Source: a phage. Taken from it: a stretch of 43,803 nucleotides of DNA. Positions 17,089 through 40,138 of this stretch are shown here, one piece after another. The notes under the pieces are model-generated. The model saw nothing but the letters and a program-made list of their open reading frames with translations. It searched no databases and was not told the DNA's origin. Each line of letters starts with the position of its first letter. The first letter of the stretch is position 1. The stretch is from the NCBI GenBank assembly GCA_018167155.1, contig GCA_018167155.1_4332.1. One strand, 5' to 3'. The translations under genes and the position numbers were made by a program.

Positions 17089-17223
17089 ACATCATAGCCC
17101 CGATTCCCGCATTGCAAAAACGTATCAAGGAACTCGAAGAGGAGGTTCTACGACTACGACAACAGAGGGATGCCGCTAATGCACAACTGGCGTTTGTACT
17201 GGAGAAGCTATCAGAAGAGTAGA
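17086..17223 (+). CDS. Hypothetical small coiled-coil protein (hand-called, 45 aa)
   Basis: ATGA-coupled to the helicase stop; reads MNIIAPIPALQKRIKELEEEVLRLRQQRDAANAQLAFVLEKLSEE. Confidence 0.3.
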
Positions 17224-17253
17224 GAAAAGGCCCCGTTTGGGGCCTTAGTTTTA
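17224..17253. terminator. Bidirectional terminator between convergent operons
   Basis: AAAAGGCCCC-GTTT-GGGGCCTT followed by TAGTTTTA; flanked by T/A runs in both orientations. Confidence 0.65.
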
Positions 17254-20205
17254 TTTATCTTCTAGTGCTGCCAGCCTCTTCTCGAACTCGCGCATCTTCT
17301 TACGCTGATAGGCAATCTCGATGAAGAACATCTGGTCCGCCCTAACCCCCCATCTGCCGCCGGGAGGGGATACTTGTACAGTCTGGCCATCTTCATCAAT
17401 ATCATACGCAGCTTCAATTGAGTCGTAGCACAAGAAAGCATATTTACAATCGGTAGAATCTTTCTCCATAAGCCCATGGTTGACCAATATGTCTCGCACA
17501 TCTTGGGCTATCACACCGAAGTGTATCCTTGCAGTGTCACCCTTGATTGCTAGGCTTTCAAGCCACTTAAAAGATATTACATGTATATCCTCCCATGCGG
17601 TAAGGAGTTGTCCCTCAATTTCCTCTTTGTTCGTCTTAAGTGTACCATCAGACGTGTTTATCGTACCGGTGGCCGCGTACACCGTAGTCCACCTATTACC
17701 TGCCGAACCTAAAGACACTTGCGAGTCTAAGTAAGGAAGAAAATTGTTGTATGAGTAGAAGCCTCCTGACGCATACATAATAGCCCTGTTAGGCGTTGCA
17801 TGGTTTGCCCCGTACAGTTGCAGCAACGCACCATCGGAACTGGATGCACCATCACCACCGCTAACTATCAGTCTTTGACCCGATGGGGTTTTAGTGGGGA
17901 CTGTTTTTGAAATCAGCCCGTAATCACCATCAAACCGTGCGCGCACGGCAGACTGTTGTGTACCATCGTATTCCAGCCCCGTTACATGCAGGGAGTACAC
18001 GCTTACATCATTGTCAAACGTTAAAGGTGCTTCTACATGGCGTACACCATCTACCCCCATGGCGACAGGTATTGTACGGTTAGGAGTTGCTCCGTATTTG
18101 AAATCACGTGATACGTACGGGTGGTCTTCAATCTTTATCCGGTAGCTATATAAGTCAGCCGGATGCCCATCATGTTTGTACCATAACTTCGCACTGTTAT
18201 CCCCTATGCTCCAGGGAGAGAAGAAGTCTTCCCCACCAAAGATATAGTACAACCAGCCATCTTTAACACAGACCGAGCCGGCGCCGACAGCAGAGTTAAC
18301 GATATGACCCTGGTATATTTGGTCGGTAATATTAAACCACTGAACATCATCTAAAGATGAAGGCCAGGACGACACATTAACTTTGCACATAAAGGTCCTC
18401 GGATACGAACCTTCATAGCGGCTGTCCTGCTCGCCACCTTCCCACTCACCAAAGGCACGTTCTGTACCAAAGATGTAGAGATAGTCACCTACTTTAGCGA
18501 ACGGAAGATTGGAGCGATGTACATTGTTCGGAAATCGCAAGTAGCTCCAGTTTTGCCCAGAATCGGTGCTCATCGCCAGTGTAGAGCCAGGGGAAGTAGG
18601 TAATGTGCCGCGTGTGGTAAGGTATAACACACCACCATAACTTTTCACGCACGGCTCAGAAGCGTTATCAGCGTATGCCTGAGCGACAGTGCGACGAACG
18701 AATACGCCAGGATTGTCATACACGTTACTAAAATACAAGACACCGAGACGCCTAGGGGACACATCGCCGTTGTGATAGCCGACAGCGATAGTGTAGTTAA
18801 CATCATCTATAACCGCAAAACTATGTGTCTCCGTGACACACAAATCAGCGTTAGTGGAGTATGCTACCCCAGGCAATTCAGTAATTTCCCACGGGCTGTC
18901 CCAGAATCGCGTTGCGAAGTTCCAGGTAACACCCGCATTGTTTATGGTGGAACTCGCCGGGGTTGAGAGCGTAACAGTGAACGTATTTCGGTTAATTATA
19001 GACGAAACCGTCATATTACCCGATACGCCAGTTGCCGATGTATTAGAGAAGTTAACCGCATCTCCTGCTTTTAGGCCATGATTTTCTATGACAATGGTAG
19101 CAGTAGTGGAGCCAGAACTAATAGTTATTCCGCCGGTTGGGTGTCTAAAATACGGCATTGGGCGTGACCAAAGTTCTGCCTTCTTCATCCGCGTATTAGA
19201 TAAGTAGCGGGTTTCTATAACTGCATATAATCGGTTGCCGCATGTACCCATGCTCATGCAGTGGTAGTTAACTCTGTCCGTAGAAACACTAGCATTATAG
19301 TCAGCATGGATTGGAGTCAACCACTCAGGCATTGACCAAGTCTGCCCGTCGTCTCCAGAGCGAACCCAAGCTACATGTAAGTTTTGAACACCATGTCGTT
19401 CGCCCGCCATAAACGGGGCGTAAATAACATGGTCGTAGACGAAAGTTTTATCCTGCGTCCATGCGTTGTAGAACGGGGTATCCGTCACCTTAGTTAGTGA
19501 GCCGTTAAAGAAGCCATCAGCTACATAAGTAAGCGGTTGCCCGGCTACGCGCTCGTAAACGAATGCAGCATTCTTAAATTTACTAATGTCAGGTAATTGG
19601 GAAACTTTATAAGTCAAACCCCTGCCGTCTATAATCCAATTGTTGGGGGAAGCTGCTAATACATTAAAAATAGATTGAGTATCATCAGTTACGCCGTCGC
19701 CCACGGCGCCCCATGCGCGCGGGTCGTATTCGTCCTTCCATCGCGCCACATGTAAATCTGGGTACAGAATTGCACCGTTTACATCAGATATTTGCTGCCG
19801 CAGTATGACCGACCCGACAGGCTGCCACGCCCCATCTGCCACGCCACCGGTGGACTGCGGAGAAGATGACGCTGGGATAATTTTTGGTAGAGCACCCAAC
19901 CAATAGTACCAATCCCCGTCACCGCCAGAGGACGACGACCACAAAACTGCGGTGTTTCGGTCGTTAGCGGATAGTGTACCGCCTGACGTGAAATCAAAAT
20001 CTGCCAGTTTAAAACCAGCATCACGCAACACGGCAGGTAACGTCTTCTGGGTCTGTCCAGTAACCTGATTTGTCGCGTAATCAATATCGGCACCACCGGC
20101 GACACCGCCGGATTTGCCAGTGATAACCTCGGCCTCGAAAATCTGATGTTTCTTGGCGGTTTGTAAATCCGCCAGGCTTAAAACGTCACCGCATCCGCTT
20201 GACAT
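17251..20205 (-). CDS. Tailspike / tail fibre with Asp-box glycosidase-like domain and C-terminal intramolecular chaperone (peptidase S74-like) domain
   Basis: 984 aa; Asp-boxes SGDDGQTW and STDSGQNW; C-terminal roughly 130 aa resemble the auto-cleaving chaperone domain of endosialidases and L-shaped tail fibres; SD AAGAGGA. Confidence 0.7.
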   Translation of the reverse strand: MSSGCGDVLSLADLQTAKKHQIFEAEVITGKSGGVAGGADIDYATNQVTGQTQKTLPAVLRDAGFKLADFDFTSGGTLSANDRNTAVLWSSSSGGDGDWYYWLGALPKIIPASSSPQSTGGVADGAWQPVGSVILRQQISDVNGAILYPDLHVARWKDEYDPRAWGAVGDGVTDDTQSIFNVLAASPNNWIIDGRGLTYKVSQLPDISKFKNAAFVYERVAGQPLTYVADGFFNGSLTKVTDTPFYNAWTQDKTFVYDHVIYAPFMAGERHGVQNLHVAWVRSGDDGQTWSMPEWLTPIHADYNASVSTDRVNYHCMSMGTCGNRLYAVIETRYLSNTRMKKAELWSRPMPYFRHPTGGITISSGSTTATIVIENHGLKAGDAVNFSNTSATGVSGNMTVSSIINRNTFTVTLSTPASSTINNAGVTWNFATRFWDSPWEITELPGVAYSTNADLCVTETHSFAVIDDVNYTIAVGYHNGDVSPRRLGVLYFSNVYDNPGVFVRRTVAQAYADNASEPCVKSYGGVLYLTTRGTLPTSPGSTLAMSTDSGQNWSYLRFPNNVHRSNLPFAKVGDYLYIFGTERAFGEWEGGEQDSRYEGSYPRTFMCKVNVSSWPSSLDDVQWFNITDQIYQGHIVNSAVGAGSVCVKDGWLYYIFGGEDFFSPWSIGDNSAKLWYKHDGHPADLYSYRIKIEDHPYVSRDFKYGATPNRTIPVAMGVDGVRHVEAPLTFDNDVSVYSLHVTGLEYDGTQQSAVRARFDGDYGLISKTVPTKTPSGQRLIVSGGDGASSSDGALLQLYGANHATPNRAIMYASGGFYSYNNFLPYLDSQVSLGSAGNRWTTVYAATGTINTSDGTLKTNKEEIEGQLLTAWEDIHVISFKWLESLAIKGDTARIHFGVIAQDVRDILVNHGLMEKDSTDCKYAFLCYDSIEAAYDIDEDGQTVQVSPPGGRWGVRADQMFFIEIAYQRKKMREFEKRLAALEDK

Positions 20206-20217
20206 ATAGAGTCCTCT

Positions 20218-22773
20218 TTAATTAAAACCATTGCTGAATCCGTCGGAGAAACCGCTGCCGTATGGCGCGACGCCGTCGTATTTATAGAATCCGTCGTCAT
20301 AGTTGTAGCCAGTAATCTTGACCGTGCGGTCGTCGCCAGGGTCGATTGAAGAAACAACTATCTTCTGAGCATTATGCCTTGCTTCGTTGCCGAATGAAAA
20401 CTCAGTTTTTAGCGCACTATTCCCCGTGTAGATTGCCTCCTCCGGCGCGGAGAGCATAATCACTTCGCGGTCGTGGCTTCCTTTGATAACAGAGATACTC
20501 TGCACAGAGCCGTCGCGCTTCTTAAGAATGATGGAGTGGTCGTCCCCGGGAGTAAACGTAACAGGCTGTGACAGCGTCAGCGTAAGCCCGTTAACGTCAA
20601 CAACATAACCATCTTGCGGGGCGATGCGGGAGCCTTTAACTACGCTGATTACACCGCCGGGTGTAGCGAGAGCGCCTTCTTCTGTAGCTTCGAACTCTAC
20701 GACAACTTTACTTAACGCATTGCGCTGATAGCGACGCCGCGCCAGCCAGTACGCCTGCTGATAGTTACGCACGCCTTTCGATTCGTACTCCTCCGTGTTT
20801 GCGCCGAGTTCTTCCGGGATATAAATAGTTTCCTGTACGTTAGTATCCGGGTCAATGTACGAGAACGACAGGCTATCGTAGGTCGTAGAATCATTAAACG
20901 TGCGGGTCCATTTCTCTGTACCAGTAGTTTTGCTGCGGTGAGTGAACACCATCTCGGGCCCTGCAACCGGGCGGTCGAAGCGCAACATAATATCCGCGCC
21001 TTTACGGTACGCGGTACAGAACACGGCTTCGGCTATAGTCTGAACGATGTCCTGCATCGTGGTGTCGTAATCGTCGAACGTGTAGCAGAACTGACCTGCT
21101 AATTCGCTGCCAAAATAGGACTCAATTTCTTCTTGCACGGCAAGCAACTTATCCATGTTTGCCGTTGTCAGTTCCAGATTACCCACCACCGGGTCGCGAG
21201 CCAGTCTGATTAGCGACTGCACCGCTTGAGTATTTGGGGTCATTACTGTATCGAATACCCCATTGCCTAAGTATTTGTAGCACATCTCTGTCGCGATCAT
21301 GCGCAGTTCCGGGTTGTCGATACTGGCTGCACGCGGTGTCTGTTTACGGGCACAATGTACGGTAGTTCGGTTGCCGTAGTGCGGGGTTGTGTCCAGAGAC
21401 TGCCCGTACAGGTTAATGAAGGTTATCTCGTCGCTTACCGTTCCGTCGTAGTCCTTGTCGAAATTCGTTACACGGCGCATACGGGCGCGGAAACGCGATG
21501 CAGTAGGCAACTGCCCGTAGATAGACGTACCGACGTAATCCGTGCTATTACCAGTAATCGTAGCACGTACCGTGTAAATGTCGCTCAACGGGTTACGCTG
21601 AGAGTCAATCATCTGGTACTGGAGTTCTACCGTTACGCTGGTGCGATTATAGCCGCCGTCATATTTGTAGAGGCCGTTTTGCCCTGCAACGTTAGCAAGC
21701 ACACGGTCAACTTCCCCGCGCACCATGTAATACCAGTCGGTCAGGGATACGTCATAGGTGTTGCTCGGGCCGATAAACGTATCTGAACGCTCTGTTAGCG
21801 TGTACGTCTGCCCGCTAGTCAACGCGGCCCAGTTAGACGCCCCGTTTACGGCTAATCTTACTTCGAAGTCGTCAACGTATAAAACCTCAAACGAGCCGTT
21901 CAGGTTAGTGACATCAGTAACGTCAAAGTTGCTCAACACCGCGACATCACCGACGCTAAGAAACTCAGAAAAAGCAGAGTCGCCGGACGGGTCATAAATG
22001 TAGCCGGTGTTTGAAATACGTTTGGCTGTGCCGTCGGCGCTTGGGTTAGCCCCGATGTCGTTTGGCGCTTTCAGTACAATACCGTCAACGTCGTCGTTGG
22101 AGTATGTCACATAGAGTTTCTGGTCAATGACGTCGCCGATTTGTAGTTGCGGCGATGCGGTGTTGTTCGGTGACGTGTACGGTGCATATACAGCAACAGA
22201 GGAACCGGTGATGTCGCTTATCAGGGTATCGCCTTCCGTGACGCCATCAGACTCGATATGCAGATGCCCGCGCCCGGCATCATAGTACGAATACTCCAGC
22301 AAAGCACCCGTGGAGTTGAACGCCTTATACGTCTGCATCAGGTCGTTAGGGATTGTCTGCACAGTCCCGCAGATGTCATAAGAGCGCTCATAGGGGCGCG
22401 GCTTGTTGGAGCGGTCTGTGAGACTGTTATTAGGCGATGTTGTCTGGTTGTTAGTCGCCGTGTAGTTGGCGTTGGTGGCCGTGTTCAGACCGAACAACTT
22501 GGCAATTGGCTTAAGGATAAAACCGAACACCTTACTAACTGCACCGAGCGCCCCGCTACCGGCGCCCTCAATAATGTGGTACACGGCGTCTTCGTCTTTG
22601 AGTGCGTCGAAGTCGTCGGTGACATCAGTATCATCGCCAATCTCGCCCAGGTAGACGCGCACCGGCACGCCGTCCGGGATACGGTTAACGACAAACTCCA
22701 TCGGCATCCCGACGTGTTTTGTACGGTCGAAAGCTCCATCAGCGTTTCGCGTGTAGTGCAGGATTATCGCCAA
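20218..22773 (-). CDS. Central tail / host-specificity protein (gpJ-like)
   Basis: 851 aa, last large gene of the tail module before the tailspike; call is by size and synteny. Confidence 0.5.
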   Translation of the reverse strand: MAIILHYTRNADGAFDRTKHVGMPMEFVVNRIPDGVPVRVYLGEIGDDTDVTDDFDALKDEDAVYHIIEGAGSGALGAVSKVFGFILKPIAKLFGLNTATNANYTATNNQTTSPNNSLTDRSNKPRPYERSYDICGTVQTIPNDLMQTYKAFNSTGALLEYSYYDAGRGHLHIESDGVTEGDTLISDITGSSVAVYAPYTSPNNTASPQLQIGDVIDQKLYVTYSNDDVDGIVLKAPNDIGANPSADGTAKRISNTGYIYDPSGDSAFSEFLSVGDVAVLSNFDVTDVTNLNGSFEVLYVDDFEVRLAVNGASNWAALTSGQTYTLTERSDTFIGPSNTYDVSLTDWYYMVRGEVDRVLANVAGQNGLYKYDGGYNRTSVTVELQYQMIDSQRNPLSDIYTVRATITGNSTDYVGTSIYGQLPTASRFRARMRRVTNFDKDYDGTVSDEITFINLYGQSLDTTPHYGNRTTVHCARKQTPRAASIDNPELRMIATEMCYKYLGNGVFDTVMTPNTQAVQSLIRLARDPVVGNLELTTANMDKLLAVQEEIESYFGSELAGQFCYTFDDYDTTMQDIVQTIAEAVFCTAYRKGADIMLRFDRPVAGPEMVFTHRSKTTGTEKWTRTFNDSTTYDSLSFSYIDPDTNVQETIYIPEELGANTEEYESKGVRNYQQAYWLARRRYQRNALSKVVVEFEATEEGALATPGGVISVVKGSRIAPQDGYVVDVNGLTLTLSQPVTFTPGDDHSIILKKRDGSVQSISVIKGSHDREVIMLSAPEEAIYTGNSALKTEFSFGNEARHNAQKIVVSSIDPGDDRTVKITGYNYDDGFYKYDGVAPYGSGFSDGFSNGFN

Positions 22774-23129
22774 AATTCAATCTCCGTGTACGTGTCTCTG
22801 AGGTCCGCCAGCCTGTCAAGCCGTACCTGACGTGAGGCAAGCTCGCAATGGCTGACCATCCCGTCGAAGTAAACTCCTGCGTGCCACACGATACGACCCC
22901 CACGGCGATACCCCATAAGCACCGCACAGAAGTTTTCAGGCTTATCAATTTTCGTAAGCCCTTTTGTGTTGCGGTGGCCTTCGTCAAACGCTTCGTTAAT
23001 TGCCGTCGGGCTTGTAACGTCGAACGCCGGAGTATCTAGCCCGGCATCCGCGCGGACAATGCGCACGTGATGCCAGCAATTGCGCTTGCGAAAGTCGTAA
23101 GGTATGCCCGTGTAGTCGTTAATATTCAT
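22764..23129 (-). CDS. Minor tail protein (gpK-like, possible Cys/His peptidase fold)
   Basis: 121 aa between the distal tail genes and the J-like gene; Cys (RNCWHH) and His (WHAGVY) spacing reminiscent of NlpC/P60. Weak. Confidence 0.35.
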   Translation of the reverse strand: MNINDYTGIPYDFRKRNCWHHVRIVRADAGLDTPAFDVTSPTAINEAFDEGHRNTKGLTKIDKPENFCAVLMGYRRGGRIVWHAGVYFDGMVSHCELASRQVRLDRLADLRDTYTEIEFWR

Positions 23130-23641
23130 GTGGTCAACAGGCCGCGTAATAACGGTATCTCTTTAGGTGTCATCAGTATACCAGTGCTTCGTTGGTTCAG
23201 CATAGGCGTACCAACATCCGCAGAAAACTCGCCTTTCTCCTGGTTGATGGCCTGTAACTCGTACACGACGGGGCCGTCAGCCGGGTAAGACAGGTCGGTG
23301 CTGACGTAACGGCGGAATACGAACTTCGGCAACTCAGTATTGCTCATCGGGATTTTATCCATCTCATCGTCCAGTTGATTGAGGATATCCGGTAGAGTAA
23401 ACGTTGTCGTCTGGTCCATATCACTATTGTTAGCGGCCCCCGACGCCTCCATCGGGGTTGGCTCAAACGTGATAGTTTCGCCTGTCTCCAGTGTTGCCGT
23501 AAGTTCCTGTAGCCCGCGCACGAGATAGTACGTCTTTGATAGCAGCGGGTGGCTGATTTGCAACGTGATGTAGTCCATCTCGCCGTCCGGGTTAGACGCC
23601 AGCTTACGGCGATAGGCTGCTTCTACTGATTCCTGGCTCAT
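23126..23641 (-). CDS. Minor tail protein (gpL-like by position)
   Basis: ORF track 23126..23656; ATGA coupling on both sides. Confidence 0.4.
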   Translation of the reverse strand: MSQESVEAAYRRKLASNPDGEMDYITLQISHPLLSKTYYLVRGLQELTATLETGETITFEPTPMEASGAANNSDMDQTTTFTLPDILNQLDDEMDKIPMSNTELPKFVFRRYVSTDLSYPADGPVVYELQAINQEKGEFSADVGTPMLNQRSTGILMTPKEIPLLRGLLTT

Positions 23642-24138
23642 TGCATCGGGTCCCAAATTCGTGGAAACGTTGATTGTGCAGTTCCGTAGGCTTTAAGGAA
23701 ACACCCCAGCCCGTCACCATAGCAACCGTACAAATCCGGCAGATTGTTAATCAGGCACTGGTTCTCAAGATCCTGGAACGGCGATTTCTCAGCGGTTGCC
23801 GTGAAAGTAATTGTCCAGTTAATCCCGTCTTCGGTGGACTCAGCGATGGTTGACGTGATTGTTACCTGGTAATCCTCGATACCCATGCCGAAGTCATGTG
23901 CCATCCAGAAACTTGACGCACCGCCATCGACTTTCTCAAGGAACGACAGAAACGCCTGCCGCCCTAGCGCCGATGTAATCAGGGTTACGCTTATCGGGAA
24001 CACGTCGTAATACGTGTCGCGCCCCTGACGTACACCTCCGCCAGCTAAATCGACGCTCCAGACGTTGTTACGTCTGGTCATTGAGTAGCCTTTTGACACC
24101 ACCGGCTTAAGGCTACGTGGGAAATATAAGTCGCTCAT
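23638..24138 (-). CDS. Minor / distal tail protein (gpM-like by position)
   Basis: 166 aa, immediately downstream of the tape measure gene. Confidence 0.45.
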   Translation of the reverse strand: MSDLYFPRSLKPVVSKGYSMTRRNNVWSVDLAGGGVRQGRDTYYDVFPISVTLITSALGRQAFLSFLEKVDGGASSFWMAHDFGMGIEDYQVTITSTIAESTEDGINWTITFTATAEKSPFQDLENQCLINNLPDLYGCYGDGLGCFLKAYGTAQSTFPRIWDPMQ

Positions 24139-24183
24139 TATTTGAACCTCGATAGATTGGATATTAACCTAACACCCATATTA

Positions 24184-26456
24184 TCACTTAAAGCCTGGTG
24201 CGTTTCTTGTAGCCTTCCTAGCTTTCGATATTTTGCTGTTACTATTCTGCAGCGAAGCAGCAACTTGTTCCTCTATGATGATACGCAAACGGCCTTCTTC
24301 GTCCTGTTCAACGCTGGTGTTGCCAATTTGTGCGCTGGTGTTATTTATAATGCTGATATTGGCCGGCCCGGTACCGCCGCCGTTCTGCCCCATAATTTCC
24401 TTCATCTGCTGTGCTGTGCGTACACGAGACGCGCCAGCTGGCATGATAACTTCTGGTTTACCACGTTCGGCGATAGTAGAAGCCTGCCCCGCAGATAACT
24501 GACCGCCTTGTTCACGGGCGGACCTGATAGCGGAAATCTGCGCCATACCAGCCCCAACGGCAGCAGCAGCGGCTACAGGTGCCAGGAACGGACCAACAAC
24601 AGGGATAGCGGCCGTTGACTTATACGCTTCAATAGCTGCGGTGTACGTGGCGATAGTGGCCTGTACGATAGCGAATGCCTTATACGCGCCAGAAGCCTCG
24701 CCCAACGCGGACCCGATATTTGAGGCCATGTTACCAAAGGCCGTTGCCGTTGCCTCAGCACGCTTGGTGGCGTATTGCTCGTTGATGGCGTTAAGTGCCG
24801 CTTGATACTGTTCCTCTTTAATCAGACCCTGCTCGCGGTACTTATCAGCTACCGCCAGTTTCTGCTGTTCCTGGATATCGAGAAGCTCAAGCTCCGTGGC
24901 ATTCTGGCCCATAATTTGAGCCATGAAGTCGTCGCCTTTCTGCTGCTTTTCCTGGGCTTCTTTCTGACGTTTATCCAGTTCATCTTGCCGTTTTTGCCCT
25001 GCTTCAAGGACAATAGCCGTTTTTGCTTGCTCGTATTCTTTCAGAGACAACGCGCCCTGGCTGTAAAACTCTTTTGCTTTAGCCAGTTTCTGCTGTTCCT
25101 GGGCGTCAATAGCCTTTAACTCGTCGTTGTTCTGACGGGCCAAAGTGTCGAGGTAATCTTGCGCCTGATTGCGCAATTGCTCCGCCTTCTTAGCGGCGGC
25201 TTTTGCCGCTTTATCGTCGGCGTTTCCGGTGCCGCCAGTTCCGCCCTTTTTATTAACAAGGCTGGCTAAGTCAATTTCTTGCTTCTTGCGCTCGTCATAC
25301 TGCTTGCGCTGTTCCTCAATTTCTTTCTTACGCTGCTTAGACCTGTCGGTAATGGCCTGGGATTCCGCCGCTGCGCGTTTTATGCTGGCGGCGTATGCGG
25401 CGTCAGCCTCTGCGGTCAGGTTTTTAAATGTGAGCGCTGCCGTTTTGCTCGGGTCAAACACATCAGCAAGGGTCTGACCTAACGCTACAGCGTAATCGTC
25501 AATGCGCTGGAACCACGCAATAACCTCGTGGAACGTCTGCTGAATGTCAGGCAACCACTCACGGATAGCATCAGGTATAGCCCCCAGCGAGTCTGACATA
25601 TCAACGGATTTGTCCTCGGTGTCGTATGCCAGGTCATTCAGGGCATCAGAAATAAACTTGAACGATTCATTGAACAGTGTCACCCAATCCTGGAGCGTGG
25701 CTGCTATCTCATTAGACGCTATGGCGTCGGTGAGTGCCGCGATAGCATCTTCCGCTCTCGCGGCTTGCTCACCTACGGCGTCACCAAAACCGGATTGCGC
25801 TACCGCAAGAACAAGACCATCGAAGGAGTCGGCGAGGCTCGACAACTGGCCATCTAAGGTCTTCGAACGCGTCTCCATAGCTCCGGCGAAATCAGTGTTG
25901 CCGATGTTTAGCAGGTATTTCTGAATCTCTTCGGAGTTCTTCTTAACGGTAGTCGTTACGCCGCGGAACGTGAACGAAACGGTATCTGCCTGTTGGGAAG
26001 ACTTAATGCCGAACTCTTTCAGCCGCTCAAACTCAAAGGTACTGGCGTCAGCCACAGCCTCAATCATCTGATTAAGGTCTTTACCCATAGCCGCCGCGGT
26101 GTTGCCGTAGGAGATTAACGCCTCTTTGCTGGGATTCAGGCCGAGGGCTACAAGTTTAGTGAAACCCTCTACCGCCTGATTGAGGCCATACGGGGTTTCT
26201 TTTGCGAACTGTTGCAGGACGCTGAAAGCCTTAGCCGCGTTCTCGGCGCTTCCGGTCATTGTGATGAGGCCGGAATTCAGCTTATCGAAGTTGCGCTGAG
26301 AGTCCACCAGCGCACTGAACACCTGTTTGGCGGTTTCCAGACTGACAATGGCAGCCGCGGCAGCACCTGCGGCTTTGGTAAGCCCGTTCAGTTGTGATGT
26401 GGTTTTATCGACGCCGGTCGAAGATACTCGTACTATCAAGCTAGCGGTATCAGCCA
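24184..26456 (-). CDS. Tail tape measure protein
   Basis: ORF track 24184..26472; about 757 aa, Ala/Gln/Glu-rich helical low-complexity sequence, follows the G/T chaperone pair. Confidence 0.85.
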
Positions 26457-26782
26457 TGATTTCTACCTTCAAAGATTGCTTCTAAGCCCATGATAATGTC
26501 TATCTCGAACAGGCTAAGCTGTTTTTGCGTAACATCGAGATAGGCTTTCAGGTCTTGCCACGTAACGGATTCTCTTGCAAACAATACTACAGCGTCCTCG
26601 CGCACGTGTCGCGTAAACTTAATGTCGCAATACGTCTCAAAGGTGGATATAAAAAGGGGCGGGCATTCTGGCCCACCCCGTCGCGCTGCACGTTTTTTCT
26701 TATCGATTACACCCATCGCGATAAGCGCCTGTTCGTGCCCGTCAGCTATAGAATCAAACTCTCTGATTTTATGCTTATCCAC
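26450..26782 (-). CDS. Tail assembly chaperone, gpT-like frameshift extension
   Basis: 110 aa ORF in the -1 frame relative to the upstream G-like gene; that frame stays open upstream across the G stop. Confidence 0.5.
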   Translation of the reverse strand: MDKHKIREFDSIADGHEQALIAMGVIDKKKRAARRGGPECPPLFISTFETYCDIKFTRHVREDAVVLFARESVTWQDLKAYLDVTQKQLSLFEIDIIMGLEAIFEGRNHG

Positions 26783-26814
26783 AAACTCGTAGGTGGCGAA
26801 CCTGTACAGCGCGT

Positions 26815-27231
26815 CTACTTTTCCTGTAATGCTTTGCGCTCAGCGTTATGGAACGCAGCTACCTGTGTGCCTAATGCCTTGAACTGGTCGAGCAACTTGT
26901 TAAACGCTTCCTTAGAGAAGGGCTCATCAAAGCTCCAGCCGTTTACAACTTCTGCTGCAAGTTGCCGGTTGAGGTCTTCCGCCAGTTCGTTAACCGCCAG
27001 GTTATATTCAGTATAGTCGCCGGTTTCTTTGGCGGCTTTTTCCAGTTCTTCAAAACGCGCCAGTCCGCGACGGTACGCGATAATGAAAGCACGCCCCGCT
27101 TTAACGGCGACATCCGCATCCGGGCTTACAACATTAAGCCATTCCCCCGAGTCTTCACCATTCGGCAGGAGAATCGGCATCTTCTTGCCTACCAGCGCTT
27201 TCTCTTCGAAATAAAAATCAGAAAGTTTCAT
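26815..27231 (-). CDS. Tail assembly chaperone (gpG-like)
   Basis: 138 aa acidic protein just upstream of the tape measure gene; candidate slippery site GGAAAAG before its stop. Confidence 0.6.
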   Translation of the reverse strand: MKLSDFYFEEKALVGKKMPILLPNGEDSGEWLNVVSPDADVAVKAGRAFIIAYRRGLARFEELEKAAKETGDYTEYNLAVNELAEDLNRQLAAEVVNGWSFDEPFSKEAFNKLLDQFKALGTQVAAFHNAERKALQEK

Positions 27232-27338: not shown

Positions 27339-27367
27339 TTGCACACCCCAATATAATAGGGTACTAT
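27339..27367 (+). promoter_or_regulatory. Sigma70-like promoter TTGCAC-N17-TACTAT with AATAG-N4-CTATT palindrome
   Basis: TTGCAC 27339-27344, TACTAT 27362-27367, palindrome AATAGGGTACTATT at about 27355-27368. Confidence 0.6.
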
Positions 27368-27396
27368 TCACTTACACCAACAATGAGGGGTTTAAA

Positions 27397-27588
27397 ATGT
27401 CAAGTTTACCAGTTTCCTTAATCCTGTTTGCACTTCTCGCCTATTTCGCACCTTTCCTGGTTGCATATTTCCGTAACCATAAAGCGAAGTTGGCGATATT
27501 CATGGCCAACCTGTTTCTCTGTTGGGTTCTGCTGCCGTGGGTATTTATTTTAATCTGGGCGTGCAACTCGAATGTTAACGAGAAGTGA
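27397..27588 (+). CDS. Superinfection immunity (Imm-like) small membrane protein
   Basis: 63 aa; YFAPFLVAYFRNHKAKLAIFMANLFLCWVLLPWVFILIWA matches the Imm_superinfect pattern as I recall it. Track ORF 26962..27588 is a longer frame; the ATG at 27397 follows SD GAGGGG. Confidence 0.55.
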   Translation: MSSLPVSLILFALLAYFAPFLVAYFRNHKAKLAIFMANLFLCWVLLPWVFILIWACNSNVNEK

Positions 27589-27626
27589 GCTAGTATAGGA
27601 CAAATCCTAAACACGAGGAAGTAAGC

Positions 27627-28757
27627 ATGGCCCGTAAGAAAATAACCGACGAACAGTTACAGGAAGAATTGAACGCCGGAATGAAGAATATCGATATAGC
27701 CCGTAAATACGGCATCTCAGACCGCGTTATTCGTATCCGTAAAGCGAAGCTGGCAAAGAAAGGCGTAGGCCACGGCCGCGACGTCAGCCACCTTGTACCG
27801 GACGGCTACAAGATTAAAGGCACGTCGTCACTGGTGGACGAGTTCGGCAACACTAAGCTGCAATGGGTTAAAACCGACACTGACGCCGAACGTCAGGTCG
27901 AGTTGATGAAAGCCGTAATCGAAGGCATGAAGTCAGAGATTACGCCGGTTGCGCCTGTTAAAGCTGCACGCGTCAAACGCGACGATAAACTACTCAATCT
28001 TTACACTGTATCTGATTTCCATCTCGGTATGCTGGCCTGGGCCGACGAGAGCGGCGACGACTGGGATATGAAAATCGCGGAAGACCTGTTCTCTCGTTGG
28101 TTCGACGCGGCGTTTCAGAAAGCGCCAGATGCAGGAACAGGGGTTATTAACCTGCTGGGCGACTTCGCGCACTTCGATAGTCTGGATGCCGTTACCCCCG
28201 AGTCGCGTCATGTGTTGGACGCAGACACTCGCTACCAGAAACTGGTGCGCTACATGATTCGTATGGTGCGCCGTGTTGTTGATATGGCGCTGGTTAAGCA
28301 TAAAAATGTCCGCTTGCTCATCGTGCAAGGGAACCACGACGAGAGCGGAATGATTTGGTTGGCTGAGATGTTTAGCACTCTGTACGACAACGAGCCGCGT
28401 GTGTTCGTCGATACGTCGCCGGATGTGTACAAGATGGTGCAACACGGCAAAACGACATTGTTCTTTACCCACGGACATAAAGCGCGCTTCGACGCTATCG
28501 AACCGGTTATGATTGCCAAGTTCCGCAAAGCGTTTGGTGAGAGCGTTTACAGCTACGCCCACGTAGGACACCTACACCATCAGAAGATTGTAGAAAGCCG
28601 TAATATGATTGTTGAGCAACACCGCACCTTAGCGGCTAAAGACGCCTACGCCTCCCGCGGCGGATGGATGTCAAGCCGCAGTGCAAACGTAATTACTTAT
28701 AGCGCCGAATATGGCGAGGTTGCACGTTTAACTATTTCACCGGAGATGCTGGGATGA
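27627..28757 (+). CDS. Calcineurin-like metallophosphoesterase with N-terminal HTH-like domain
   Basis: 376 aa; ordered motifs SDFHLG (DxH), GDFAHFD (GD), QGNHDE (GNH[DE]), THGH, GHLHH (GHxH); N-terminal KNIDIARKYGISDRVIRIRK looks like an HTH. Confidence 0.65.
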   Translation: MARKKITDEQLQEELNAGMKNIDIARKYGISDRVIRIRKAKLAKKGVGHGRDVSHLVPDGYKIKGTSSLVDEFGNTKLQWVKTDTDAERQVELMKAVIEGMKSEITPVAPVKAARVKRDDKLLNLYTVSDFHLGMLAWADESGDDWDMKIAEDLFSRWFDAAFQKAPDAGTGVINLLGDFAHFDSLDAVTPESRHVLDADTRYQKLVRYMIRMVRRVVDMALVKHKNVRLLIVQGNHDESGMIWLAEMFSTLYDNEPRVFVDTSPDVYKMVQHGKTTLFFTHGHKARFDAIEPVMIAKFRKAFGESVYSYAHVGHLHHQKIVESRNMIVEQHRTLAAKDAYASRGGWMSSRSANVITYSAEYGEVARLTISPEMLG

Positions 28758-28984
28758 CTTCAAAATACAACCGAACAATGACAAACACTCACGGCAGCAC
28801 TATGACCGTAGACGTTTACGATGTTCTCCGTGCATTCGACATCCGTGACCCCGCACTACAGCACGCATTGAAGAAACTATTGTGTATGGGTCTTCGCGGG
28901 CACAAGGACACCGGAACCGACTTAGCGGAAGCAATTGAAAGTCTGGAGAAGTTACGAGAGTACCGTAGTAATATAGATGAGTAA
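28754..28984 (+). CDS. Hypothetical protein
   Basis: 76 aa, ATGA-coupled to the phosphoesterase gene. Confidence 0.45.
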   Translation: MTSKYNRTMTNTHGSTMTVDVYDVLRAFDIRDPALQHALKKLLCMGLRGHKDTGTDLAEAIESLEKLREYRSNIDE

Positions 28985-28991
28985 GAATGTA

Positions 28992-29150
28992 ATGAAAACA
29001 ATATACGTAATCCGCGTATATGACGAAGAATGGGATGAGTGGGTTGGTATTTATGCTGTTGGTAGTAAGGAAGAGGCCTCGAAAGAAATGACAGAACGTA
29101 GTAACCGAGGTCAGTTAACTAACTTCTATGAAATGCCATTCAAAAGTGAG
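28992..29150 (+). CDS. Hypothetical small protein (hand-called, 52 aa)
   Basis: Reads MKTIYVIRVYDEEWDEWVGIYAVGSKEEASKEMTERSNRGQLTNFYEMPFKSE; ends 5 nt before the terminator. Confidence 0.3.
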
Positions 29151-29154
29151 TGAG

Positions 29155-29183
29155 AAAAGGCCCCGTTAGGGGCCTTAGTTTTA
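29155..29183. terminator. Bidirectional terminator (strong on minus strand after the tail tube gene)
   Basis: AAAAGGCCCC-GTTA-GGGGCCTT-AGTTTTA, a near-identical copy of the element at 17224. Confidence 0.7.
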
Positions 29184-30353
29184 GGCGTAACTAATACGCT
29201 GGATGACAATAGATGACTGGTACTGGTTGCCTGTGGACTGCCCTTCTATACTTTGAGTAATTGATTCCGGACCAGATATTTCTGGTGTAACAGCCGTAAG
29301 TTCGGCGCGTTTCAAACTGAAAGACATAGCCCCGTTTACCCCAGCCAGAATAGAGTTAATCTCTACCTGCTGTTCGTTGATAAACTTCTGAATCATAGCC
29401 ATATCGTACAGCTTACCGGAGATGGAGAAGGTGTTAGCTGCGCGGCTACGTTCCACAAACGCAACGTTAGAGTTGCCGAGTTCGAACTGTGCGGACGCGC
29501 TGTTGTCGTTGGTGATGGTAAGGCTATCGCAACGCAACGGGGTAGAACCGTCGAACACAGAAACGTCGACCGAGGAGAACGGCTCATCACCAAACGTAAC
29601 GGAAGAGAAGTCAGAACCAGACGGCGCCGCGGTGAGAATCTCCTGGCTGCGACCGATGAACGGGAAGCTGCCCGTTACCATCGCGTTAACGGCCTGCTCA
29701 ACGGTAAAACCAGAAACTTCCACGCCTTTGGTTAACGTGTACGCGTCAGTCCCGCCGCACTGGCCTTTGTACCAGGTGAGGATAGAGAACGTCTTACACG
29801 CGTTACCAGTTTCCAGTTTGTCGCCGGTCTTAGCCGCAGTAGTGGCAGTCTCTGTGGTGAGGGTGTGCTGAATGCCCGCACCGGTAACTACCAGTGCCTC
29901 TACCGAGGTAACGATAAACGGTTTTGCGTTGTCGCCCGTCAAGTCGGTAAACGCAATCAGGTCACCCACTTCAACGCCGTCAGTAATGAAGCTGCCATCA
30001 GCACGAGTGAACGTCTTGCCCGCCGGTGCGACGGTAATCGATAGACTGGACAGGGAAACACCGGATTGCCACGTAGAGCCTAAAGCACCCGCCAGCCAGT
30101 CGTCCTGGCTTTTCGAGCTAAGCTCGATCGCGTATTCACCGCTAACCTGTTTGTTACCGGTGCGGATGGATGTAGTCTCACGGCTGCCGTCCAGTTCGTT
30201 GGATGTCAGCGTGTCTCGGGTAATAGCAGGAACGCCACCTGTGTTACGCAACGGCGACCATACCGGGTTAGTCGGTGTTACGCCCGGGGTGACTTCCGCC
30301 ACATAGAATTGCGCGGTAGTCGCGCCCTTAAAAGGAGTTGTAGCCATATTCAC
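29181..30353 (-). CDS. Major tail (tube) protein
   Basis: 390 aa Thr/Ser/Gly-rich protein upstream of the chaperone and tape measure genes, followed by a strong terminator. Confidence 0.65.
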   Translation of the reverse strand: MNMATTPFKGATTAQFYVAEVTPGVTPTNPVWSPLRNTGGVPAITRDTLTSNELDGSRETTSIRTGNKQVSGEYAIELSSKSQDDWLAGALGSTWQSGVSLSSLSITVAPAGKTFTRADGSFITDGVEVGDLIAFTDLTGDNAKPFIVTSVEALVVTGAGIQHTLTTETATTAAKTGDKLETGNACKTFSILTWYKGQCGGTDAYTLTKGVEVSGFTVEQAVNAMVTGSFPFIGRSQEILTAAPSGSDFSSVTFGDEPFSSVDVSVFDGSTPLRCDSLTITNDNSASAQFELGNSNVAFVERSRAANTFSISGKLYDMAMIQKFINEQQVEINSILAGVNGAMSFSLKRAELTAVTPEISGPESITQSIEGQSTGNQYQSSIVIQRISYA

Positions 30354-36235: not shown

Positions 36236-36264
36236 TTGCAGACACCAGTATAATAGGGTACTAT
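36236..36264 (+). promoter_or_regulatory. Sigma70-like promoter TTGCAG-N17-TACTAT with AATAG-N4-CTATT palindrome
   Basis: TTGCAG 36236-36241, TACTAT 36259-36264, palindrome AATAGGGTACTATT. Confidence 0.6.
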
Positions 36265-36298
36265 TCAGTTATCGAAGCGAGAGATAAGGGGCTTAAAG

Positions 36299-36535
36299 AT
36301 GAAAGAATTAATTATCGCGGTATTGACGACACTGGCAGTTTCGCTGGCAGTTTCGCTGGCAGTTTCACTGGTAATTGCTGCTGGTGTACGTAGCCTAGAT
36401 AAACACGAGTGTGAGAACTACGGAGATGTCACAGGCAGAGAGGTAATGTATAGTTACACAACTTGTTATGTGAAAACTGATAGAGGTTTTATCCCTCGTG
36501 GAGAACTTAATTTTAGAGCAGCGACACATGAATAA
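36299..36535 (+). CDS. Small membrane-anchored protein with tandem AVSL repeats
   Basis: 78 aa; N-terminal hydrophobic LIIAVLTTLAVSLAVSLAVSLVIAAGV encoded by three tandem 12-bp repeats, then a 50-aa Cys-containing domain; own promoter and terminator. Confidence 0.6.
   Translation: MKELIIAVLTTLAVSLAVSLAVSLVIAAGVRSLDKHECENYGDVTGREVMYSYTTCYVKTDRGFIPRGELNFRAATHE
36334..36369 (+). repeat. Three tandem 12-bp repeats (GGCAGTTTCGCT-like) inside the CDS
   Basis: Directly visible: ctggcagtttcgctggcagtttcgctggcagtttcactgg. Confidence 0.7.
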
Positions 36536-36538: not shown

Positions 36539-36564
36539 TAAGGCCCCATAACGGGGCCTTTTAT
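36539..36564. terminator. Terminator hairpin between convergent genes
   Basis: AGGCCCC-ATAAC-GGGGCCT followed by TTTTAT; identical stem to the element at 38641. Confidence 0.65.
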
Positions 36565-37025
36565 CATTCTGGCTTAGTAACCTTCGCCGCCTTGCTTACC
36601 GCCTCAACTCCATCGGCATCGGTAACTTTAACGAAGTATTCGCCAACGGCATTAACCGTCAGGGACAGGGCCTCTTCCGGGGCGTTTACCACTTCCTTAC
36701 CGTCTTTGTACCAGGTCAGCGCGTATGGCGCTTTTCCAGCCTTAACCTCGACAGTGATAGTCGCGCTGCCGTCTACCAGTTCAGCGTCCTGGGGTTGTAC
36801 GGAGAAATACACATCACCTGCGTCCGCCAGATACGGAATCTCGTAAAACATGCCCGCCGCCGGTAGCGCAATACCGGTCTTGTCTGCAAACGGCATATCG
36901 TCTACCGGTGTACCGAGTACACTTTCGTCTTCAATAAACACCACGTTCTCGCCGGAGCCAGACACGCGGGCATACTGGACTACACGACGCGACGGCACAT
37001 CTGTTACTTTGAAAAAGCCCATCAT
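36564..37025 (-). CDS. Hypothetical structural protein with C-terminal Ig-like domain
   Basis: 153 aa; TITVEVKAGKAPYALTWYKDGKEV is Ig-like. Confidence 0.5.
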   Translation of the reverse strand: MMGFFKVTDVPSRRVVQYARVSGSGENVVFIEDESVLGTPVDDMPFADKTGIALPAAGMFYEIPYLADAGDVYFSVQPQDAELVDGSATITVEVKAGKAPYALTWYKDGKEVVNAPEEALSLTVNAVGEYFVKVTDADGVEAVSKAAKVTKPE

Positions 37026-38070
37026 TATTCCCCTTTCAGATAATCAGCAACACGTTTATCGAGTTCCGCCATCTGCTTAAGTGTGAGCGGATTCCCGAAA
37101 CAATCTACAGATATTACGCGAAACTCTTCTGGCGATATACCGCTGTTGCGGAAAATCTTACCTCGCACCGGGCCGAGGGCTTCATCCACGAACCACGCCG
37201 GTTGTTGTTTCAGGAACTCGTAGTAAGTGGTGTCTGCGCTTACCTGAGTACCTCCGTCCGCACCCTTAGCCGCACGTTTTGCACCTTTATCGAGGAAGTC
37301 GAACTCTGAACTGATTACAGGCGCAGTGGTCGTTCTGCAGTTAGGATGGAAAGGTGGCCTCGGCCCTTTGCCGATTTCGTATTCCTGCCCGTCCAGGCTA
37401 CGGCATATTGTTGATGTACGACTGTCGAGTGTGGCGACGATTTCGTATTTCTCGATGATGTCGTCGTTCTGGCGGTACGTCTCGTTGCGTGCTTCGTTGG
37501 ACACGTGAGACAGCGCAGTACGTATTACCGTAGCGGCGTTACGTTCAGAGATGTCAGCCAGTCCACCAGCGCCTACGACATTCTTAACAATCTGCCGTGT
37601 TGTTTGGCCTTGTACAAAGCCCATCTTAACGCCGGTTACCAGGCGAGCGACTTCGGTTTCACCCCAGCCAGACATCAACTTAGTGAAATCAACCGGCTTG
37701 TCGCTTAGCGATAGCGGTTGAAACTCGGCGGCGGCCCACACCTGTTCGGCGGTAGGCGTAACAAATTCCGCATTAACGTTGGTGGTAAGTGTCTTTACGT
37801 TCCACTCTGCTTCATATGCCGCCAGTTCCTTAAGGTCTTCTGTCAGCTTTGTCTGCCAGTCACCAGTAAGCCCTGTCAGTGCTTCTTCAAGGTCACGTAA
37901 CAGTTTATTCAGTCGCGCTGTGCTGCGACCGTCGTCGCCGAACAACAGCACCTGTCGTTTGATTTCGTCCCGCATTTCCCGGATGAACGGTGTGAGGTCT
38001 TTCACTTCGCCGGATGCGGTGCGTTGCAGCCATATCTGGTGGCTAATTAGGGATGTAAGTAAGCTCATAT
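37025..38070 (-). CDS. Head morphogenesis protein (Mu gpF / SPP1 gp7 family)
   Basis: ORF track 37025..38125; ATG at 38070 after AGGAGGG. C-terminal ICRSLDGQEYEIGKGPRPPFHPNCRTT matches the Mu F HPNCRC signature. Confidence 0.7.
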
Positions 38071-38112
38071 GCCCTCCTGTAGTATCGACAGTGTAACGTA
38101 TAAAAATAATAT

Positions 38113-38141
38113 TTGCAGACACCAATATAATAGGGTACTAT
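38113..38141 (+). promoter_or_regulatory. Sigma70-like promoter TTGCAG-N17-TACTAT with AATAG-N4-CTATT palindrome
   Basis: TTGCAG 38113-38118, TACTAT 38136-38141; the promoter-to-SD sequence is nearly identical to the 36236 promoter. Confidence 0.6.
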
Positions 38142-38167
38142 TCAGTTAACTTAAACAGGAGATGAAA

Positions 38168-38329
38168 ATGGTTACTTTGATTACTTGGGAACACGAAAAT
38201 AGTCAACCTGAAACGCGTGAATTCGAAACTGTAGCGGCTTGCTACCGCCTGGCGTCAGGCGGATTCTATAAATCACAGATTGTAAATGAGTTTGGAGTGG
38301 TGGATTATGAGTTTACGAAACAATCTTAA
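38168..38329 (+). CDS. Hypothetical small protein (hand-called, about 53 aa)
   Basis: ATG 6 nt after AGGAG; reads MVTLITWEHENSQPETREFETVAACYRLASGGFYKSQIVNEFGVVDYEFTKQS. Confidence 0.35.
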   Translation: MVTLITWEHENSQPETREFETVAACYRLASGGFYKSQIVNEFGVVDYEFTKQS

Positions 38330-38651
38330 GAACCACTTGAAGGTCTACGGGCCTTATGGCTTGCATTCATGGAACGGTGGGTATGACGTAAACGATGACC
38401 TGCCGATACGTAAAATAGCACGCGCGGCGCGACGCAATGTAAAGCCGGGTGACGTGCTAGTCATACGAGATAATAATGTCATTGTTGAGGTTGAGAAAGT
38501 TCATGGCATGTTTCTCACAGTAATACCTGTTGATGTTGCTTTGCGTGACGCAAGGCCCTACCGAGAAGCTGGGGGTGGTAAAACTGGTAAATACACATAC
38601 GGCAGGATTGAGATACATAAAACACATCTTGATAAAGTTAAGGCCCCATAA
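38307..38651 (+). CDS. Hypothetical protein
   Basis: ORF track 38286..38651; internal ATG at 38307 after GGAGTGGTGG; 114 aa basic protein. Confidence 0.5.
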   Translation: MSLRNNLKNHLKVYGPYGLHSWNGGYDVNDDLPIRKIARAARRNVKPGDVLVIRDNNVIVEVEKVHGMFLTVIPVDVALRDARPYREAGGGKTGKYTYGRIEIHKTHLDKVKAP

Positions 38652-38664
38652 CGGGGCCTTTTTC
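38641..38664. terminator. Rho-independent terminator between the plus cassette and the portal gene
   Basis: AGGCCCC-ATAAC-GGGGCCT followed by TTTTTCTTT. Confidence 0.7.
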
Positions 38665-38665: not shown

Positions 38666-40138
38666 TTACTGCGGTTGTTGTTGAGCCGACTGCGGAATCT
38701 CTCCTGATACCTGAGTAACCGCACCCAACGGCAGCGGCGCGTCCTCGATAGCGTTCTGAATATCCTCGTCTGTCCAGTCGATTACACCCGCTTTACGCAA
38801 CGCAGCATAATAAGCAGTAGCGGGTAGCAGGCCGGCGTTAATATCCGCCATCCACTGCGCTCGTTCGGGCGCGGTCATCGGTTGCAGGAAGAACTCCATG
38901 TTAAGTTTAAACTCAATCTCTGTGCCTTCACGCAACCCTAACATCGCGGCTACCCAGCGCAACGCATCGGTGTACGCCATGCTTACGTTACGCGCAATTG
39001 TCGCCATAACAGACGTGTCGGCGCCGCGTTGCAGGCGGGCCGATTCGGCGGTGATTTGCTGCGTCGGGGTGATAAGCTGTGCGCCAATCTGAATGGCCTG
39101 ATTCTCCTTATCCAGCATGTTCTGCTTGGCGAGGTTGTTCTCTCCAGCCTGAACCAGAAACGCGTTGCCGCCGTAACCGATGTTATGGCCTGAACGCGAC
39201 CCCATACGCACGCCGTGGGGGTTGGCTTCTTTCCACTGTTCCATGCTCATGTTCTCGCCAGGGGCGATGAACAGAGTGGGCTGGCCTACAACGAAGCTGG
39301 ATTCCTCATTGTCTGCGCTGTTGCGGAAATGTCCGATATTAAGCTCAGCCAACGGCAGCAAAGGTGCGTCGTCAATGGTTGCATCGTTGTTGCTCGCCCC
39401 AATGAACGTGAACGGGATTTTACCGCGCAACTGTTCGCCGAGTTCCGGGAATATCTCGATTACTTCGTCCTTAGCGCCACCTTCGGCATCGAAGCGGTAA
39501 ATGCGCTGGCGATAACGACCGTCAATCAGGTCAAGGACGCGGTATTGTTCGCCGAACTTTGTTTCGAACTCTGCACCAGGTTCTGAGTATTCCCATACCT
39601 CACGCAGCACGACCATTGTCACACGGTTAACTGAACCGACGCGGGTCAGTCGCCAGTTGATGATGTTCTCTGCGGTGTAGAATGCGATGACCGGGTTTAA
39701 TAATCCTGCGTTCTGTTCGGCTGCTGTTGCCGCTGCTGTCTCCGGCGCATCCACCAGCAAGCCCCCACGCCCCATTGAGTCAATCTCCATTAGCGTGTCC
39801 TGCGCGTGCTGCCACAGCCCGACACCGGAGCCATCAGCATTGCGCAACAGGTACTCCAGTTCAGGCGGGATAATCTGCTCAGGGTCTTTGTGCATCACTG
39901 ACCCCACCATCCCAGCCAGGGTACGTTTAGTGAAGTTGTAGCAAATAGCGCCGTTCTCGTATTCTTCCTGGCGCTGTGCAGCGTAGGTCTGGTCGGGTTC
40001 GTTCTTCCCGACATTTCGAAGATAGCGAATAAGGTCGCCTTCCAGCGCGTGTCGCACCTTCTGCCATTTATTGAAGTGATGCAGCCATTCCCGGTGTTTT
40101 GTCTTAACACCCTGATTCTGACCGTTCATAGTTAACAT
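38666..40138 (-). CDS. Portal protein
   Basis: 490 aa directly downstream of TerL; SD AAGAGGA; call rests on size and conserved TerS-TerL-portal-MuF synteny. Confidence 0.65.
   Translation of the reverse strand: MLTMNGQNQGVKTKHREWLHHFNKWQKVRHALEGDLIRYLRNVGKNEPDQTYAAQRQEEYENGAICYNFTKRTLAGMVGSVMHKDPEQIIPPELEYLLRNADGSGVGLWQHAQDTLMEIDSMGRGGLLVDAPETAAATAAEQNAGLLNPVIAFYTAENIINWRLTRVGSVNRVTMVVLREVWEYSEPGAEFETKFGEQYRVLDLIDGRYRQRIYRFDAEGGAKDEVIEIFPELGEQLRGKIPFTFIGASNNDATIDDAPLLPLAELNIGHFRNSADNEESSFVVGQPTLFIAPGENMSMEQWKEANPHGVRMGSRSGHNIGYGGNAFLVQAGENNLAKQNMLDKENQAIQIGAQLITPTQQITAESARLQRGADTSVMATIARNVSMAYTDALRWVAAMLGLREGTEIEFKLNMEFFLQPMTAPERAQWMADINAGLLPATAYYAALRKAGVIDWTDEDIQNAIEDAPLPLGAVTQVSGEIPQSAQQQPQ

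Follow-up and report, generated by a model that had tools for sequence, protein, structure and literature searches.

Copies of one terminator-like hairpin close putative promoter-cargo-terminator units at convergent gene junctions of a Kagunavirus-type phage

Hendrix and colleagues reportedly conceived of morons as promoter-gene-terminator units inserted between conserved phage genes; the classical examples are described in temperate lambdoid phages, and their regulatory sequences are unrelated. Bidirectional intrinsic terminators are a second familiar class, in which a perfect GC-rich palindrome lies between convergent stop codons, an A-tract flanking one arm and a T-tract the other. A third system is that of the promoter-early stem-loops (PeSLs) of T4-type phages, where repeated sigma70-like promoters and G/C-tract stem-loop terminators surround non-essential ORFs (Arbiol et al. 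2010, PMC2839356; 2014 follow-up, PMC4122927). A PeSL unites both parts in a single composite motif that is repeated ~50 times between genes of hyperplastic regions; it shields virion genes from spill-over transcription and has been proposed as a crossover point of modular shuffling, recombination between copies yielding insertions, deletions, replacements and mini-circles (PMC2839356, PMC4122927).

We analyzed a 43.8-kb stretch of phage DNA (the window; 43,803 nucleotides, contig GCA_018167155.1_4332.1), which represents an E. coli siphophage of Kagunavirus type (Guernseyvirinae) with ~90% identity to named phages and is probably the whole genome. Its hairpins share the palindrome, the tracts and the siting of bidirectional terminators, but here one sequence, near invariant in two genera, is reused at four junctions with a fixed flank polarity that differs by site. 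Its cassettes resemble morons in carrying a promoter-like element, accessory cargo (e.g., superinfection immunity) and a terminator, and in being present or absent between collinear relatives; unlike morons, they all reuse the same promoter and the same terminator, and they belong to a phage group reported to be without lysogeny genes. The likeness to PeSLs is that a 31-nt element of presumed promoter activity and a hairpin bracket three cassettes, yet the two lie 0.3-1.8 kb apart at opposite cassette ends, with 3-4 pairs per genome in a small siphovirus. We therefore did not class these elements as PeSLs, the separate promoter and hairpin and the few pairs departing from the composite-motif definition. 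Hybrid hairpins, relocated cassettes and breakpoint enrichment were seen in relatives and may be indirect signs of recombination between copies.

On the ORF map, the plus-strand replication module ends at 17222 and is followed by the first hairpin, after which the tail genes (17251-27231) run on the minus strand up to cassette 2 (27397-29153, plus strand). The second hairpin follows this cassette, and then come minus-strand genes from the tail tube to the capsid and lysis genes; a 78-aa ORF (cassette 3; 36299-36535, plus strand) precedes the third hairpin and the minus-strand decoration and head-morphogenesis genes, and a two-ORF cassette 4 (38162-38651, plus strand) precedes the fourth hairpin and the minus-strand portal and terminase genes. 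Each cassette lies on the strand opposite to its neighbours and has its own promoter-like element. In the head-morphogenesis gene of phage Snoke (L001; 29488-31347), a 273-residue intein is annotated by the depositors; the homologue in the window (37025-38125, 366 aa) is short enough to be intein-free.

The sequence AAGGCCCC-loop-GGGGCCTT occurs exactly four times in the window. The pattern GGCCCC-N3-8-GGGGCC also gave four matches (17229-17244, 29159-29174, 36542-36558 and 38642-38658) versus none in 100 dinucleotide-preserving shuffles, and the hexamer GGCCCC alone is not enriched (22 found versus 16.7 expected). All four copies reported by the first-pass annotation (17224-17253, 29155-29183, 36539-36564 and 38641-38664) are present at those sites, though its intervals are a few bases wider than the stems and include flanking stop codons; its claim that each copy sits where plus and minus units converge was also borne out. 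Counting the A/T extension, hairpin 1 (17227-17246, AAGGCCCC-GTTT-GGGGCCTT) lies between a 45-aa ORF (17085-17222, plus) and the tail fibre/tailspike gene (17251-20205, minus), and hairpin 2, the focal copy (29157-29176, AAGGCCCC-GTTA-GGGGCCTT), between the last ORF of cassette 2 (28977-29153, plus) and the tail tube gene (29181-30353, minus). Hairpin 3 (36540-36560, AAGGCCCC-ATAAC-GGGGCCTT), inverted relative to the first two, separates ORF 36299-36535 (plus) from the decoration gene (36564-37025, minus); hairpin 4 (38640-38660, AAGGCCCC-ATAAC-GGGGCCTT), oriented like hairpin 3, separates ORF 38286-38651 (plus) from the portal gene (38666-40138, minus). The space between the convergent stop codons is 26-30 nt at each site and is filled by the hairpin, leaving 3-5 nt between stem and stop codon on either side, except that the plus-strand stop codon at hairpin 4 falls inside the loop.

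The copies at 36k and 38k are the reverse complement of those at 17k and 29k, flanks included, and therefore all four represent one oriented element, roughly GAnAAAAGGCCCC-GTTA(T)-GGGGCCTTAGTTTTAT, with the aligned consensus GAnAAAAGGCCCCGTTAtGGGGCCTTAGTTTTAT. In element orientation their loops are alike (GTTT, GTTA, GTTAT and GTTAT); homogenization of loops within a genome was considered and rejected, as relatives lack such a pattern. A fifth convergent junction, between the helicase-primase end (7028) and the end of a Cro-like gene (7046), carries a different hairpin, GAAGGGGC-TTAAC-GCCCCTTT, at 7037-7057; its U-tract is on the minus strand only, and the plus-strand replication transcript has no obvious terminator there.

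The stem has 8 bp (six G-C and two A-U pairs), and the calculated folding energy is about -15 kcal/mol on both strands at every copy (-14.9 to -15.8 kcal/mol). Directly 3' of the GC stem, one strand has the tract UUUUCUCU, UUUUAUCA or UUUUUCUU, and the opposite strand has UUAGUUUU or UUAACUUU. T/A runs on both sides had been noted for two copies; the runs are real, but all four copies, not two, are A-rich 5' and T-rich 3' on both strands. The element thus has a polarity, TAA-AACT-AAGGCCCC-loop-GGGGCC-TTTT, one side offering a clean run of four to five U (GGGGCC-UUUU(U)CU) and the other an interrupted one (GGGGCC-UUAGUUUUA). At sites 1 and 2 the clean side is turned toward the transcripts of the fibre and tube genes (at hairpin 1 the tract is UUUUCUCU, facing the minus-strand transcript), and at sites 3 and 4 toward those of the cassettes. 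A consensus terminator scanner also detects the hairpins, and the depositors of Snoke annotated paired plus and minus terminators at three homologous junctions, including the site of hairpin 2.

The hairpins thereby combine the features of an intrinsic (Rho-independent) terminator, i.e., a stable GC stem-loop, a U-rich 3' tract and siting at the 3' end of a transcription unit, and the first-pass reading of them as terminators fits this anatomy, including the U-rich tails on both strands, the adjacent stop codons and the Snoke annotations. Stable stem-loops directly after stop codons could also act on the RNA, as 3'-end stability or processing elements that block 3' exonucleases or serve as an RNase site without stopping the polymerase, a role that would not conflict with termination and could operate alongside it. 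We consider this explanation very unlikely: U-rich tails, here on both strands, typify intrinsic terminators, an 8-bp stem is far below the ~20 bp of a typical RNase III substrate, and Rfam 15 gave no match at the gathering threshold in the whole window.

As predicted from this anatomy, the four hairpins would be copies of one asymmetric bidirectional intrinsic terminator. Host RNA polymerase arriving from either side would be released at the hairpin, since the RNA folds at about -15 kcal/mol and carries a U-rich tail on either strand, and the convergent units would be kept from antisense read-in. The interrupted UUAGUUUUA side may be the leakier one; at sites 3 and 4 this presumably leakier side is turned toward the structural-gene transcript, which would suit these sites because structural-gene transcription must continue to downstream genes.

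To place the hairpins in a comparative frame, we collected ~100 related loci from IMG/VR and found the homologous junctions by their anchor proteins, not by the hairpin. Among these loci, which are not phylogenetically independent and come in part from the same contigs, the exact stem was present in 22 of 23 distinct sequences at the helicase module/tail fibre junction (J1), in 45 of 51 at the 3' end of the tail tube gene (J2; 7 nt after the stop codon), in 37 of 45 at the 3' end of the decoration gene (J3) and in 17 of 45 at the 3' end of the portal gene (J4). Stem-bearing relatives include loci whose flanking DNA is only 66-76% identical, such as Salmonella phage SE2 (Jerseyvirus), and the flank polarity of the hairpin is kept. 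Compensatory stem variants are nearly absent, and two sequences have the arms swapped (GGGGCC...GGCCCC).

Stem identity had been taken in the first-pass annotation as a sign of one spreading repeat. On its own it is weak evidence of shared descent, because AAGGCCCC-N3-6-GGGGCCTT occurs in >120 unrelated viral contigs among the matches listed, usually once per contig; the shared oriented flanks, on the other hand, extend the likeness beyond the stem. The commonness of the bare stem means that convergence could contribute to the stem similarity. Pure convergence would have each junction arrive independently at the same optimum for a two-way terminator, the copies being unrelated by descent and having no part in exchange, and other terminators in the window do share GCCCC/GGGGC cores. 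Such an origin is nonetheless unlikely in our estimation: the likeness reaches into the oriented flanks (TAAAACT... and ...TTTTCT), co-directional terminators of the same genomes have their own, different stems, compensatory variants are almost missing despite the divergence of the flanking genes, and relatives contain hybrid hairpins, double hairpins around added genes and an 88% identical unit at two junctions, all described below.

The loops behave differently from the stems. In close relatives they often differ by exact inversion while the stems remain identical (L122-L226, at all four junctions); J1 loops include AAAC (16) and GTTT (4), J2 loops include TTTC (27) and GAAA (12), and at J3 the reverse complement is also present for 7 of 14 loop classes. 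Because the loops differ by exact reverse complementation over unchanged stems, this pattern points to frequent small inversions at a perfect palindrome, as would be left by template switching or intra-palindrome inversion. A literature search for earlier descriptions of the hairpin element in Guernseyvirinae, or of terminator loop inversion, returned general papers only.

The far end of the cassettes carries a second shared sequence, which we located through a conserved block at the far end of relocated cassettes in relatives. The 31-nt element TTGCAGACACCAATATAATAGGGTACTATTC occurs three times in the window with 0-2 mismatches (none expected), always on the plus strand and heading a cassette: at 27339-27369 (TTGCACACCCCAATATAATAGGGTACTATTC) it opens the cassette closed by hairpin 2, at 36236-36266 that closed by hairpin 3 and at 38113-38143 that closed by hairpin 4. 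The first start codon of each cassette follows its copy at a distance of 19-33 nt, and the copies can be read as a -35 box TTGCAC (TTGCA(C/G) across copies), a 17-nt spacer and a -10 box TACTAT, the last overlapped by the dyad AATAG-N4-CTATT. In relatives, 74 of 75 occurrences of the element are oriented toward the hairpin; the element is absent from their empty slots and not recognizable in Jerseyvirus loci.

The cassettes opened in this way carry typical accessory genes, all on the plus strand. Cassette 2 encodes an Imm-type superinfection immunity protein (27397-27588), a metallophosphoesterase/'DNA repair exonuclease' (27627-28757) and two small ORFs without assigned function (28754-28984 and 28977-29153). 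Cassette 3 consists of the 78-aa protein (36299-36535), whose function is not assigned and which contains LAVS repeats; these are encoded by a 12-nt unit repeated three times at 36332-36370 (ctggcagtttcg) and lie in a hydrophobic segment. Cassette 4 encodes a DUF7170 protein (38162-38329) and a 121-aa ORFan (38286-38651) that reads through the 5' arm of hairpin 4 to a TAA in its loop, for which neither Pfam nor PHROG gave a match and the cassette ORFs of the examined relatives included no homologue.

A 17-nt core of the 31-nt element is found seven times in the window versus 0.05 expected: in addition to the three cassette copies, four copies lie on the minus strand in the early region, two of them (7291-7307 and 7335-7351) upstream of a minus-strand HTH_3 (Cro-like) regulator gene (7046-7261). 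Exact AATAG-N4-CTATT dyads number eight versus 0.02 expected, all at promoter-like sites, and the same dyad lies in the spacer/-10 region of all three near-consensus sigma70 promoters (TTGACA-17-TATAGT, 11/12 matches) that face rightward on the plus strand of the replication module (7326-7354, 10171-10199 and 14738-14766). This excess over expectation suggests one regulon under a single DNA-binding protein, for which the HTH_3 product is a candidate. The promoter-like element of the cassettes shares its dyad with the replication-module promoters. We also weighed the opposite reading, with the 31-nt element directing transcription into the structural genes, and discarded this orientation, which fits some copies only; in the cassette orientation an RBS and a start codon follow 19-33 nt downstream in six of the seven core copies, the seventh lying upstream of the copy nearest the cro-like gene, and we infer that the cassette orientation is to be kept.

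The core has a published counterpart. In Kagunavirus fBC-Eco01, the PHIRE program yielded a 'phage promoter' repeat, tgAATAGTa-ccTATTat-T, in seven copies (PMC9825357), and this consensus is the reverse complement of the core that is found seven times in the window. That study assigned the repeat to a phage-encoded RNA polymerase and drew no link to a hairpin, whereas the window copies read as a sigma70-type promoter with a dyad operator; a host-type promoter of this kind appears to suit the sequence better than a phage RNA polymerase promoter. RNA-seq of K1B4 (Kagunavirus) gives gene-level time classes only, with the HTH gene in the early class and the Imm gene in the late one, and because of this split we dropped the label 'early' for the cassette promoters.

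The comparison of relatives ties the hairpin to the cassettes most clearly at J4. There, 17 of 17 occurrences of the GGCCCC form come with an antisense ORF (minimum 40 aa) that ends at the hairpin, and no empty slot has this form; empty J4 slots (64 nt) have AGCCCC-GAAA-GGGGCT or no hairpin, and empty J3 slots in Kagunavirus have AAGCCCC-GAAA. The J3 and J4 slots are filled or empty in relatives whose flanking proteins are 95-98% identical, i.e., whole units bounded by hairpin and promoter element come and go between conserved neighbours. Extra cassettes bracketed by two hairpins hold a 223-aa antirepressor-like gene in SE2-like phages and an HNH-like ORF in L161. Clustering of the cargo ORFs revealed at least four cargo families that occupy different junctions in different phages, and a 268-nt unit, beginning at the hairpin and ending shortly beyond the promoter element, is 88% identical between J3 of L129 and J4 of L161. 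For two relocated families the likeness is at the protein level: HNH-type cargo at J1 and J2 gave no nucleotide match, and the phosphoesterase at J3 and J2 shares the coding region alone. As no hairpin-to-hairpin nucleotide homology was found for these two, they do not show the hairpin moving with its gene.

The notion of the first-pass annotation that the element spreads with accessory cassettes consequently holds in part. It applies to sites 2-4, which close cassettes headed by the 31-nt element, and is backed by the J4 association, the extra copies and the 88% identical unit. It does not apply as a general rule, since hairpin 1 ends the essential replication module rather than an accessory cassette, the J1 and J2 hairpins are resident in nearly all relatives, and 10 Jerseyvirus-type sequences have a GGCCCC hairpin at J3 without a cassette.

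Endonuclease-like genes occur both inside and outside of these slots. Two HNH_3 homing-endonuclease-like genes lie on the plus strand within the replication module of the window (10912-11409 and 13995-14492); the related HNH-like ORF of L161 (15553-16099) sits between its two hairpin copies at the tube junction, and another is found at the fibre junction of a different relative. The fibre gene itself (17251-20205, minus strand, 984 aa) matches K1-specific endosialidase tailspikes annotated in K1G, K1H and ULINTec2, and its 3' end is common to only 3 of 22 relatives; for these reasons K1-capsulated E. coli is probably the target of the window phage.

At J1 the hairpin marks a sharp boundary. 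Across 22 distinct contexts, 16 mutually non-homologous fibre 3' ends all run into TAA-AACTAA-GGCCCC...GGGGCC-TTTTCTCTACTCTTC, and from the fibre stop codon onward the genomes are again homologous. More generally, ends of homology blocks lie at most 20 nt from the hairpin in 57 of 68 covering loci at hairpin 2, 40 of 45 at hairpin 3, 35 of 45 at hairpin 4 and 17 of 37 at hairpin 1, compared with 2.1 on average (95th percentile, 15) for random windows of equal size, bearing in mind that intergenic regions are natural breakpoints anyway. In hybrid hairpins (L138 at J4; L125 and L133 at J3), the arm and flank on the left belong to one type and those on the right to the other, which indicates crossovers inside the hairpin. 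Between filled and empty J4 alleles the entire intergenic region is different, and for this reason much of the exchange may use homology of the flanking genes rather than the hairpin. The hairpins thus appear to mark where accessory and tail-fibre genes are swapped, with recombination presumably occurring at these sites.

A palindrome that bounds cassettes, with an invariant stem lacking covariation and loops that flip by exact inversion, might alternatively be a dedicated DNA recombination site akin to the attC of integrons, recognized as hairpin or duplex DNA by a phage-encoded nuclease or recombinase that captures and relocates cassettes; the window does encode HNH endonucleases, a PD-(D/E)XK nuclease and the metallophosphoesterase. 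However, attC sites are imperfect palindromes with extrahelical bases and a cognate integrase, and the element here is a perfect palindrome of only 8 bp. Neither an integrase nor another site-specific recombinase was found among the scanned ORFs, which make up part of the window's ORFs, and papers on relatives report no recombinase and a lack of lysogeny genes. Moreover, the promoter-side boundary of the cassettes has no matching site, and ordinary short-homology recombination accounts for the data, making this explanation highly improbable. As a short palindrome in several copies, the hairpin also recalls a selfish, self-inserting miniature repeat of the REP/MITE kind without function, an idea to which we give almost no credence, as the copies are confined to gene 3' ends at the same four junctions in two genera, with no target-site duplications and no scattered copies.

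Taken together, the sequence comparisons make it probable that the hairpins are conserved bidirectional intrinsic terminators that close promoter-cargo-terminator units and also serve as crossover points for the exchange of cargo and fibre genes. Three of them would be the 3' ends of moron-like units inserted antisense among the structural genes, each opening with the conserved sigma70-like 31-nt promoter. Hairpin and promoter are proposed as crossover points because both are short, repeated at several junctions and common to co-infecting relatives; cargo could in this way be gained, lost and moved, and fibre genes could be swapped up to the hairpin. A bolder version of this proposal, which we regard as rather doubtful, is that the hairpin and the 31-nt promoter are universal linkers, i.e., subfamily-wide docking points through which co-infecting Guernseyvirinae exchange cargo and receptor-binding fibres by short-homology recombination. 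If so, the stem would never covary because of selection for compatibility, and host-range engineering would find, in the hairpin next to the fibre stop codon, a junction already in place.

As terminators the hairpins are ordinary and already annotated in relatives; the comparative picture is the more valuable part. It suggests that one terminator of 20-35 nt and one promoter sequence define the slots for variable cargo, superinfection immunity genes for instance, in Kagunavirus and Jerseyvirus, a widely used group of candidates for therapy, and that the same terminator is the exact 3' boundary of the swappable fibre/tailspike. Annotators would gain a simple rule for finding accessory cassettes, and phage engineers natural, conserved junctions for fibre swaps or payload insertion. 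A motif published as a phage RNA polymerase promoter would, moreover, look more like a host-type promoter with a dyad operator. These observations may also carry the idea of PeSLs and morons, described in large T4-type phages and in temperate ones, over to virulent siphoviruses of small size.
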